Source: Eledone cirrhosa
Taxonomy: Eukaryota
Assembly (NCBI GenBank): GCA_964016885.1
Contig: OZ024743.1
Coordinates: forward strand, 80,352,001 to 80,416,000
Length of the DNA stretch: 64,000 nt
Reading direction: 5' to 3'
In this document: piece by piece, positions 37,943-39,620 of the stretch
Layout: each line of letters begins with the position of its first letter
Position numbering within the stretch: position 1 is the stretch's first letter
Translations under genes and position numbers: made by a program
Notes under the pieces: model-generated
Database searches by the model: none
Told to the model about the DNA's origin: nothing
Seen by the model: only the letters and a program-made list of their open reading frames with translations

Positions 37943-38273
37943 TATATATATATATATATATATATATATATATATATATAAGAAAGTAAGTCCATAGAAT
38001 CATTTGATAAAATATATACAGTATTTCTTCTACCAATTAGCATAATCAACCACATAAAAAATCAATTAAATGAGGCTATAAGTTTAAAATATAACTACGA
38101 AGAAACAATAGATAAGTAAACGTTAGCTATTTTATCCGCTATCTACATCCGCAGAAGATTTACCTAGTATTTCTAATAGCCCGTAGAAATTGACTAGACA
38201 TATAGTTAACCATACATAATTAGGTACAAAATCAAAGTTAGAAGAAATAACGTACATAAACATACCAAAAACA

Positions 38274-38358
38274 TGTTTCTACCCCCTGGGGTTTCATTCG
38301 CTTTTTGGAAACATCCGATCATGGATAAATCAACGAGTTTCGAAATCATCAGGAAACA
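38274..38358 (-). ncRNA. Type I hammerhead ribozyme (family G)
   Basis: tgtttc-CTGATGA-tttcg...cgaat-GAAA-cccc(ag)gggg-TA-gaaaca. Confidence 0.8.
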
Positions 38359-38812
38359 AACTCAATTGGACAAAGATTTTTCTTAAATGATCCCCGCCAG
38401 ACACGAATTCAAAATGGCTAAGAATTGTCACATGGCCAGTGGTCAAGCCAGAAAGCTTGTGATTGGTGCCTGACGGCGAGTAGACTGGTTGCTAGAAAGC
38501 GCAGCCGAATACTGCCTAAAGTTTGACTCAACCTTACGGGAGTATATAAAATACAGAGGTTTACATAGACACAAACTAGACTGACCCATATATATATATA
38601 TATATATGTTTTTTCAACCATTCACGGTGTGGCTCAATGACGAATTAATTAATTAAAAGTATTCGGCTGCGCTTTCTAACAACCAGCCTACTCGCCGTCA
38701 GGCACCAATCACAAGCTTTCTGACTTGACCACTGGCCATGTGACAATTCTTAGCCATTTTGAATTCGTTTCTGGCGAGGATCATTTAAGAAAAATCTTTG
38801 TCCAATTGAGTT

Positions 38813-38897
38813 TGTTTCCTGATGATTTCGAAACTCGTTGATTTATCCATGATCGGATATTTCAAAAAAGCGATTGAAACCTCCGGGGATAGAAACA
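38813..38897 (+). ncRNA. Type I hammerhead ribozyme (family G, slightly decayed)
   Basis: tgtttc-CTGATGA-tttcg...cgatt-GAAA-cctccgggga-TA-gaaaca. Confidence 0.65.
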
Positions 38898-39620
38898 TGT
38901 TTTTGGTATGTTTTTGGTATGTTTCTTCATAGATACATTTTAAACTTATAGCCTCGTTTAATTGATTTTTTTATGTGGTTGATTATGCTACTTTGGAGAA
39001 GAAATACTGTATATATTTTATCAAATGATTCTATGGACTTACTTTCGTATATATTGCTCTGATTGTTGATTATTTAATTAATTAATTCGTCATTGAGCCA
39101 CGCCGTGAATGGTTGCCAAAAACATATATATATATCTATCTATGGGTCTGTCTAGTTTATGTATATGTAAACCTCTCTCTCTCTCTCTCTCTCTCTCTCT
39201 ATATATATATATATATATATATATATATATATATATATATATATATATATATATATATATATATATATATATATATATATATATATATATATATATATAT
39301 ATATATATATATATATATATATATATATATATATATATATATATATATATATATATATAAATATATATATATATATATATATATATATATATATATATTT
39401 ATATCTGTATTTTTAACCGTTGGTCAGTCAATGATAAATACTGATTGCCAAATAAATTAACTATGGAGATATAAAAGATACAGATGCGAAAACCAAACAA
39501 ACAGTGAGTGTGTTCTGTTATTATTTCTGGCAATATTATAACAACATGACCCTCCCCAAGTATAACAATATATATATATATATATATATATATATATATA
39601 TATATAGTATATGAACAATT

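Follow-up and report, generated by a model that had tools for sequence, protein, structure and literature searches.

The head-to-head locus at 37982-39176 of the window (the whole 64-kb stretch of DNA analysed here) is probably one insertion of a non-autonomous, hammerhead-bearing non-LTR retrozyme, for which a Penelope-like element (PLE) supplied the reverse transcriptase-endonuclease. In particular, comparison of the window with itself identifies a 5′-to-5′ inverted pair, with 37982-38657 on the minus strand and 38658-39176 on the plus strand, whose arms are copies of a non-coding unit of ~670-700 nt (longest stop-free stretch, 67 codons); the unit period is 670 nt in a third family copy near 50 kb, and about 702 nt when assembled from the two arms. 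The unit structure, the absence of coding capacity, the hammerhead core, the copy number, the junction and the microsatellite flanks are directly observed. The loci and the parts of the inverted pair are:

12826..13935, no strand assigned: sister locus with a unit of ~544 nt, head-to-head arms of one unit less 9 nt and one unit plus 30 nt, and 5-6 nt of junction microhomology
37941..37980, no strand assigned: (TA)n tract, the putative target, abutting the minus-arm 3′ end; the unit itself continues in TA-like letters, for ~6 nt of microhomology
37982..38657, minus strand: minus arm, unit positions 1-676, equal to one unit less 26 nt
38410..38467, minus strand: promoter-like motifs upstream of the hammerhead, at unit 191 and unit 240
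38657..38658, no strand assigned: head-to-head junction with 0-1 nt of microhomology and no spacer
38658..39176, plus strand: plus arm, unit 145-403, deletion, 551-676, linker, unit 1-104
38899..38925, plus strand: internal deletion site, with ~147 nt gone, a short tandem duplication and TGTTT microhomology
39047..39072, plus strand: 26-nt linker joining the 3′ end of a unit to the 5′ start of the next, and thereby closing the unit, also in the 50 kb copy and one contig of run X4
39177..39398, no strand assigned: (CT)n(TA)n tract abutting the plus-arm 3′ end, with CTCT microhomology (4 nt)
49723..50690, plus strand: third family copy, a 1.45-unit partial direct tandem with a period of 670

The original prediction of an inverted dimer of a permuted monomer is borne out, with its centre at 38657/38658. 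The arms start as it quoted (tttaattaattaattcg for the minus arm, (a)gtattcggctgcg for the plus arm), the plus arm wraps round to gtaaacctct at 39176, and the internal deletion expected near 38920 is located at 38916-38920, where it takes out unit positions 404-550. Before this deletion, the plus arm had a length of one unit less ~40 nt; it is permuted and runs across the unit junction, including the 26-nt linker that is missing from the minus arm. The deletion scar looks like the product of a later, end-joining-like event. The two arms are identical at 465 of 491 aligned sites (94.7%) and are closer to each other than either is to the third copy; at 58 of 471 sites they have the same letter where the 50 kb copy has another, and at 26 they disagree, which is the pattern expected of a single event from one source, followed by decay. 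The (TA)n tract follows the minus-arm 3′ end and the (CT)n(TA)n tract follows the plus-arm 3′ end, in a window of animal-like DNA that is rich in microsatellites; all three family 3′ ends in the window lie in a microsatellite or AT-rich target.

Two other origins of this geometry were weighed. A single tandem copy could have inserted and been inverted later at the locus, by fold-back duplication, break repair or gene conversion; the small distance between the arms (only 5%), the density of (TA)n and palindromes in the region, and the repair-like deletion in the plus arm would all suit such a history. However, each arm has sequence that is absent from the other and the flanks are unduplicated, so that one arm did not arise by simple copying of the other; further, the geometry is repeated at 12826-13935 and inversions occur at other breakpoints in family copies, which together make later inversion improbable. 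An assembly artefact or a fold-back DNA transposon is more improbable still. Microsatellite flanks and inverted repeats are difficult to assemble and the mapped reads did not cover the centre junction, but the arms differ at 26 sites and by a deletion, unlike a chimeric read, and the unequal ends, the permutation, the non-inverted partial tandem and the hammerhead do not fit the terminal inverted repeats of a fold-back transposon.

The hammerhead motif has a type I layout in all three copies, consisting of a 6-bp stem I, CUGANGA, a bulged stem II of ~50 nt, GAAA, a short stem III and UA. The motifs of the two arms are:

38274..38358, minus strand: minus-arm hammerhead motif, with CUGAUGA at 38352-38346, GAAA at 38295-38292 and a predicted cut between 38280 and 38279
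38813..38897, plus strand: plus-arm hammerhead motif, with an intact core; its stems II and III have two mismatches more than those of the minus arm

Among the three copies, all 12 core positions (CUGANGA, GAAA and NUH) are invariant, stem I is 100% paired and stem III has 2-4 bp. The minus-arm hammerhead has a long stem II with a U-U base and a short, partly self-complementary stem III; its hammerhead fold has a free energy of -13.8 kcal/mol, compared with -17.3 kcal/mol for the minimum-energy fold, a difference of 3.5. The intermolecular stem III duplex has calculated energies of -19.8, -15.1 and -4.3 kcal/mol over the three copies, and is strong in the arms and weak in the 50 kb copy. Animal hammerheads are described as having a weak palindromic helix III and dimeric activity (PMC4209133; here and below, cited statements refer to the portions of each paper that were available). 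Rfam has no match at gathering score anywhere in the window, and at E values up to 10 its six matches at the locus include no ribozymes. A relaxed hammerhead scan finds 8 motifs in the window, compared with 0-2 in 20 shuffles, in a search that is incomplete (it missed the plus-arm, 12826 and 22853 motifs). No direct tandem with two hammerheads is present among the family copies in the window.

All the stem sequences that were quoted do occur in the DNA, but the description of the stems as covarying does not hold. Over 20 named pairs, 91.7% of cells are paired, compared with 28-57% when the partners are slid, for a structure that was drawn from these very sequences; among the three motifs, none of the 20 pairs is altered on both sides between standard pairs. 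In particular, tttcg/cgaat places U opposite U where the copy at 50325 has G-C, and gaaaca/gagaca is a one-sided change from U-A to a U-G wobble. The accompanying proposal of selection on structure fares better in part. When the minus arm is set against the 50 kb copy, differences occur at 0 of 12 core positions, 5 of 38 stem positions, 14 of 40 unpaired hammerhead positions and 107 of 568 positions in the rest of the unit; the core and stems thus carry fewer differences than all else (Fisher p = 0.057), without compensatory change. These counts are suggestive of a constraint on the hammerhead structure and stop short of proof.

The stem II base is U-U in both arms and G-C only in the 50 kb copy. 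Both arms are without the G10.1-C11.1 pair that is usual, and highly conserved, in the hammerheads of PMC4209133. Across the two large families, the motifs at 13575-13650 and 38274-38358 both have U-U at the stem II base, where G-C is usual, and this base may be a conserved variant instead of decay.

Over 50023-50690, the 50 kb copy is identical to the minus arm at 540 of 653 sites (82.7%); its hammerhead is at 50312-50393. Its 3′ end lies at the same TA-like site as that of the minus arm, and, relative to the position that corresponds to the cut site, its 5′ end is 5-9 nt downstream. At 49705-49733, this 5′ end makes up a palindrome that surrounds a TA tract and in which 8 element bases match, which recalls the junction palindromes of PMC3846280.

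The same architecture had also been reported at 12826, and it holds for 12826-13935, where 555 of 565 sites are identical between the arms. The hammerhead of this sister locus has U-U at the stem II base. Its assignment to a different family stands only in part: the minus arm has no alignment with the 12826 family above chance (1147 of 2000 shuffles score at least as high), but the 50 kb copy shares a segment of ~75-110 nt with it, with a score of 56 that was reached by 2 of 2000 shuffles and that is the best of 14 comparisons. The shared segment sits at an equal distance from the hammerhead core in both families (151-154 nt upstream). The two loci are therefore probably distant relatives and not fully independent examples of the architecture.

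Beyond the window, the unit is a dispersed high-copy family. Mapping of 37982-38657 matched 2,903 of 16.5 million contigs in run X1 and 2,513 of 12.5 million reads in run X7 (both organism A), with a further 30 contigs in organism B and 3 in organism C, two other species; the family contigs and reads are mostly 80-95% alike. These counts cover 4 of 9 runs (X6, with a share of 0.04, and X2, X3, X8 and X9 were left out), and the mapping masked 38578-38657 as a repeat, so that the centre junction lay outside the mapped stretch. Three exact-motif patterns had no matches in metagenome contigs, viral contigs or prokaryote genomes. Four of the nine listed joints connect opposite strands, at unit 632/455, 561/443, 546/426 and 400/111; each comes from one contig (one also from 2 reads), in a table that gives no orientation, head-to-head or otherwise. 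Their breakpoints differ from those of 37982-39176, so that inversion is not confined to this locus. Loose ends beyond 37983 enter TA repeats in 25 contigs of X1 (agreement 0.55) and 183 reads of X7 (0.63), and in one X4 contig the loose end at 37983 enters the 26-nt linker. The read data are unphased. No core position is found among the 40 difference rows listed (out of 198). By a hand count of these 40, rows with at least 70% of another letter in both X1 and X7 comprise 6 A-to-G and 2 T-to-C changes on the sense strand, too few to claim an imprint of RNA editing.

The general insertion mechanism put forward in the original prediction is supported by the recurrence of the geometry at 12826-13935, in the pair at 22853-23118 and at the four opposite-strand joints elsewhere. 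The mechanism itself is a pattern already described for PLEs and is not novel (PMC8557442, PMC3846280). In these and a related study, PLE insertions are 5′-truncated partial tandems whose 5′ end adjoins an inverted copy, and they have a tail of 30-40 bp on one side and a bias towards microsatellites (PMC8557442); inverted PLE insertions are most often head-to-head (PMC3846280); and a PLE protein was shown to cut both strands, to extend them and to begin within the RNA (PMC11167929). Members of the Hydra clade of PLEs have hammerheads and use (TA)n as their insertion target (PMC8557442). Moreover, non-LTR retrozymes have been defined with PLEs as their proposed helpers (PMC7229834; review PMC7761336), and retrozyme units of 51-972 bp are related to PLE ends through homology to pseudo-LTRs (pLTRs; 10.64898/2026.07.22.740005).

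The promoter-like motifs of the minus arm are putative, and we take them to be a CCAAT-box-like motif (unit 191) and a YY1-like motif (unit 240). In the PLE-made insertion that we favour, the unit would be transcribed from an internal promoter as a tandem RNA, which may self-cleave as a dimer and circularise. The PLE protein would nick the (TA)n tract on both strands, and the 3′-OH of each strand would prime reverse transcription inside the RNA, at unit ~676-683 and unit ~104, both putative priming sites having short microhomology to the target. Joining of the two cDNAs at their growing ends would then produce two 5′-to-5′ copies, one of them with a one-sided extension, and the 147-nt deletion and the 5% arm divergence would be later changes.

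Several features count against this reading. The extension on one side of the locus runs to ~128 nt (~100 nt for the sister locus), compared with the 30-40-nt tail of PLEs; the 3′ ends show 4-6 nt of target microhomology, and the PLE protein in vitro started at sites that were non-homologous to the target (PMC11167929); and a target-site duplication is unreadable in microsatellite flanks. The hammerhead results above weigh on the same side, namely the lack of covariation, of an Rfam match and of a copy with two hammerheads in direct tandem, a fold that is not the minimum-energy one, and arms without the usual stem II base pair.

The window contains one candidate for the class of helper:

53270..55375, plus strand: broken Penelope-like reverse transcriptase with a GIY-YIG endonuclease at its C terminus, carrying a CxCX5C linker, CxxC and CxH (Hydra-clade features)

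This open reading frame lies 14 kb from the inverted pair and is broken near 54.9 kb by a frameshift and, within the endonuclease, by a stop. Its Hydra-type identity is based on homologues and motifs; the source-named homologues include Argonauta hians and sea-anemone proteins at 41-44% identity, and Pfam has no family for its first stretch. Its 5′ part (53194-53342) is repeated in inverted orientation at 56647-56795, 3.3 kb downstream, with 98% identity, and its 3′ end, at 55358-55587, has a 113-nt tandem duplication.

The relation of retrozymes to PLE ends raises another reading, in which the unit is the pLTR of an autonomous PLE and the copies are its truncated ends, with no independent non-autonomous family. 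PLE insertions are mostly 5′-truncated, and retrozymes resemble pLTRs (10.64898/2026.07.22.740005), as such ends would. Conversely, the unit closes on itself without room for an open reading frame, with the 3′-to-5′ join found in the plus arm, the 50 kb copy and the X4 contig, and two copies have an interior that is uninterrupted throughout. A coding remnant was not found in the unit either, as none of 120 PLE-like proteins matched it, and we consider the pLTR reading unlikely. Comparison of the unit with the ends of the window PLE gave scores that were matched by 13-41 of 200 shuffles and are not significant.

For the insertion by a PLE enzyme, the form of the RNA template is roughly evenly balanced between a circle and an uncleaved linear tandem. 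A linear tandem transcript, uncleaved or partly cleaved, has a little less than an even chance of being the template; arms of one unit would then arise by chance, or by a stall of the enzyme at protein bound to the equivalent site in the upstream unit. The partial tandem at 50 kb agrees with such a template, as do reports that RNA left unprocessed was the main substrate of a PLE in vitro, where hammerhead mutants had no effect on insertion (PMC11167929), and that 8 of 9 frog retrozyme dimers were uncleaved in vitro (10.64898/2026.07.22.740005). However, an extra assumption is required for 5′ ends that follow their own 3′ starts.

A circular monomer RNA, on which each reverse transcription halted after about one lap on meeting its own RNA-DNA hybrid, is a credible template that we hold to be somewhat short of probable. 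The four arms at the two loci are all within 40 nt of one unit (-26, -40, -9 and +30), and the 5′ end of each arm follows its own 3′ start instead of a common point, for which a single lap of a circle would be a simple explanation; the rough chance of such agreement is 4e-4 for the four arms, and 0.02 for the two minus arms alone, values that are inflated because the loci were chosen for their dimer look and the definition of the sister unit comes from its own arm. Both arms also cross the hammerhead cut site intact, and the circular folds are more stable than those of shuffles (z of -2.5, -3.4 and -5.1, with 25 shuffles; -1.6 in the sister family). Circles have been shown for other animal retrozymes and proposed as the template for retrotransposition (PMC7229834). 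In contrast, the 50 kb copy has 1.45 units and a start 5-9 nt past the cut site, as would suit a linear cleaved RNA, and the four opposite-strand joints of the family imply shorter arms. Taken one step further, the head-to-head loci could be footprints of a PLE enzyme that copied a circular ribozyme RNA of ~700 nt from both nicked strands, about one lap each, and the vehicle would be a superfamily of large retrozymes that have U-U at the base of stem II and share an upstream motif; we put this forward only tentatively.

The surroundings of the locus contain several other inverted and hammerhead-like elements. An older inverted pair (37630-37765 and 39416-39555, 86% identical) lies around the whole locus, so that the inverted pair described here seems to sit inside the (TA)n at the centre of another inverted element. 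At 37790-37940, an imperfect palindrome of ~150 nt between TA tracts carries a minus-strand CTGATGA...GAAA core-like motif. The head-to-head pair at 22853-23118 is 89% identical and has a hammerhead motif in which the stem II base is G-C and stem III is palindromic; on the left the pair ends in (TG)n/(TA)n, and a 3′ fragment is also found at 6394-6466. More hammerhead-like motifs occur at 525-745, 28544-28745 and 60423-60624, and at 24678, 25441 and 58212; three of these belong to one young family of ~200 nt, 95-98% identical and ending in (TA)n. A small multi-copy family, often palindromic between TA tracts, is present at 12597-12805, 51891-52085, 8756-8985, 28397-28541 and 60638-60774. Two inverted-arm elements in TA tracts (62070-62616 and 62746-63241, the second with a one-sided extension) have no hammerhead by the incomplete relaxed scan. 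Further fragments of LINE-type reverse transcriptase and mariner-like transposase are located at 16160-17895, 25489-25878, 30906-31786 and 59601-59990.

Compared with known systems, the family resembles animal non-LTR retrozymes (PMC7229834, 10.64898/2026.07.22.740005) in its non-coding, low-GC (34-36%) tandem unit, type I hammerhead, weak stem III, high copy number, co-occurrence with PLEs and a length inside 51-972 bp. In contrast to invertebrate retrozymes, which are typically 150-350 nt, its unit is about twice as long and has a bulged stem II of ~50 nt; unlike animal retrozymes, it has no copy with two direct-tandem hammerheads in the window, and the unit is known here from DNA alone. With endonuclease-bearing PLEs (PMC3846280, PMC8557442, PMC11167929) it shares the partial tandem, the inverted 5′-truncated copy abutting the 5′ end, the one-sided extension, the AT-rich or microsatellite target and the two 3′ start sites; it differs in lacking an open reading frame, in its extension of ~128 nt compared with 30-40, in arms of about one whole unit and in 3′ target microhomology. 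It is like Hydra-clade PLEs in (TA)n targeting and hammerheads (PMC8557442), though no end sequence common to the unit and the Hydra-clade PLE of the window was detected. The non-autonomous MRC1 of Chlamys is likewise a non-coding dependant of PLEs, which forms pLTRs and head-to-tail insertions; the Chlamys elements differ in being green algal, mostly without hammerheads, and similar at their 3′ ends to autonomous partners (PMC8557442).

The main text of PMC7229834 and the available portion of 10.64898/2026.07.22.740005 contain no description of head-to-head retrozyme insertions, and no paper combining a retrozyme with a head-to-head arrangement was found in a search that most subscription papers lie outside. 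Overall, the family is new and its parts are known, namely hammerhead-bearing non-coding units and Penelope-type head-to-head insertions; repeat databases may already list the family.

The mobilisation of retrozymes by PLEs has so far been based on co-occurrence and end homology, and the combination found here adds structural support for Penelope-like enzymes moving animal retrozymes. If arms were indeed laid down in single laps of a circle, arm length minus unit length would become a genome-wide read-out of circles as the retrotransposition template. If one-unit arms hold genome-wide, the circular-template and PLE-inversion questions would both be testable from sequence alone. Further, the family forms long inverted repeats at many loci, and these may be a source of double-stranded RNA.
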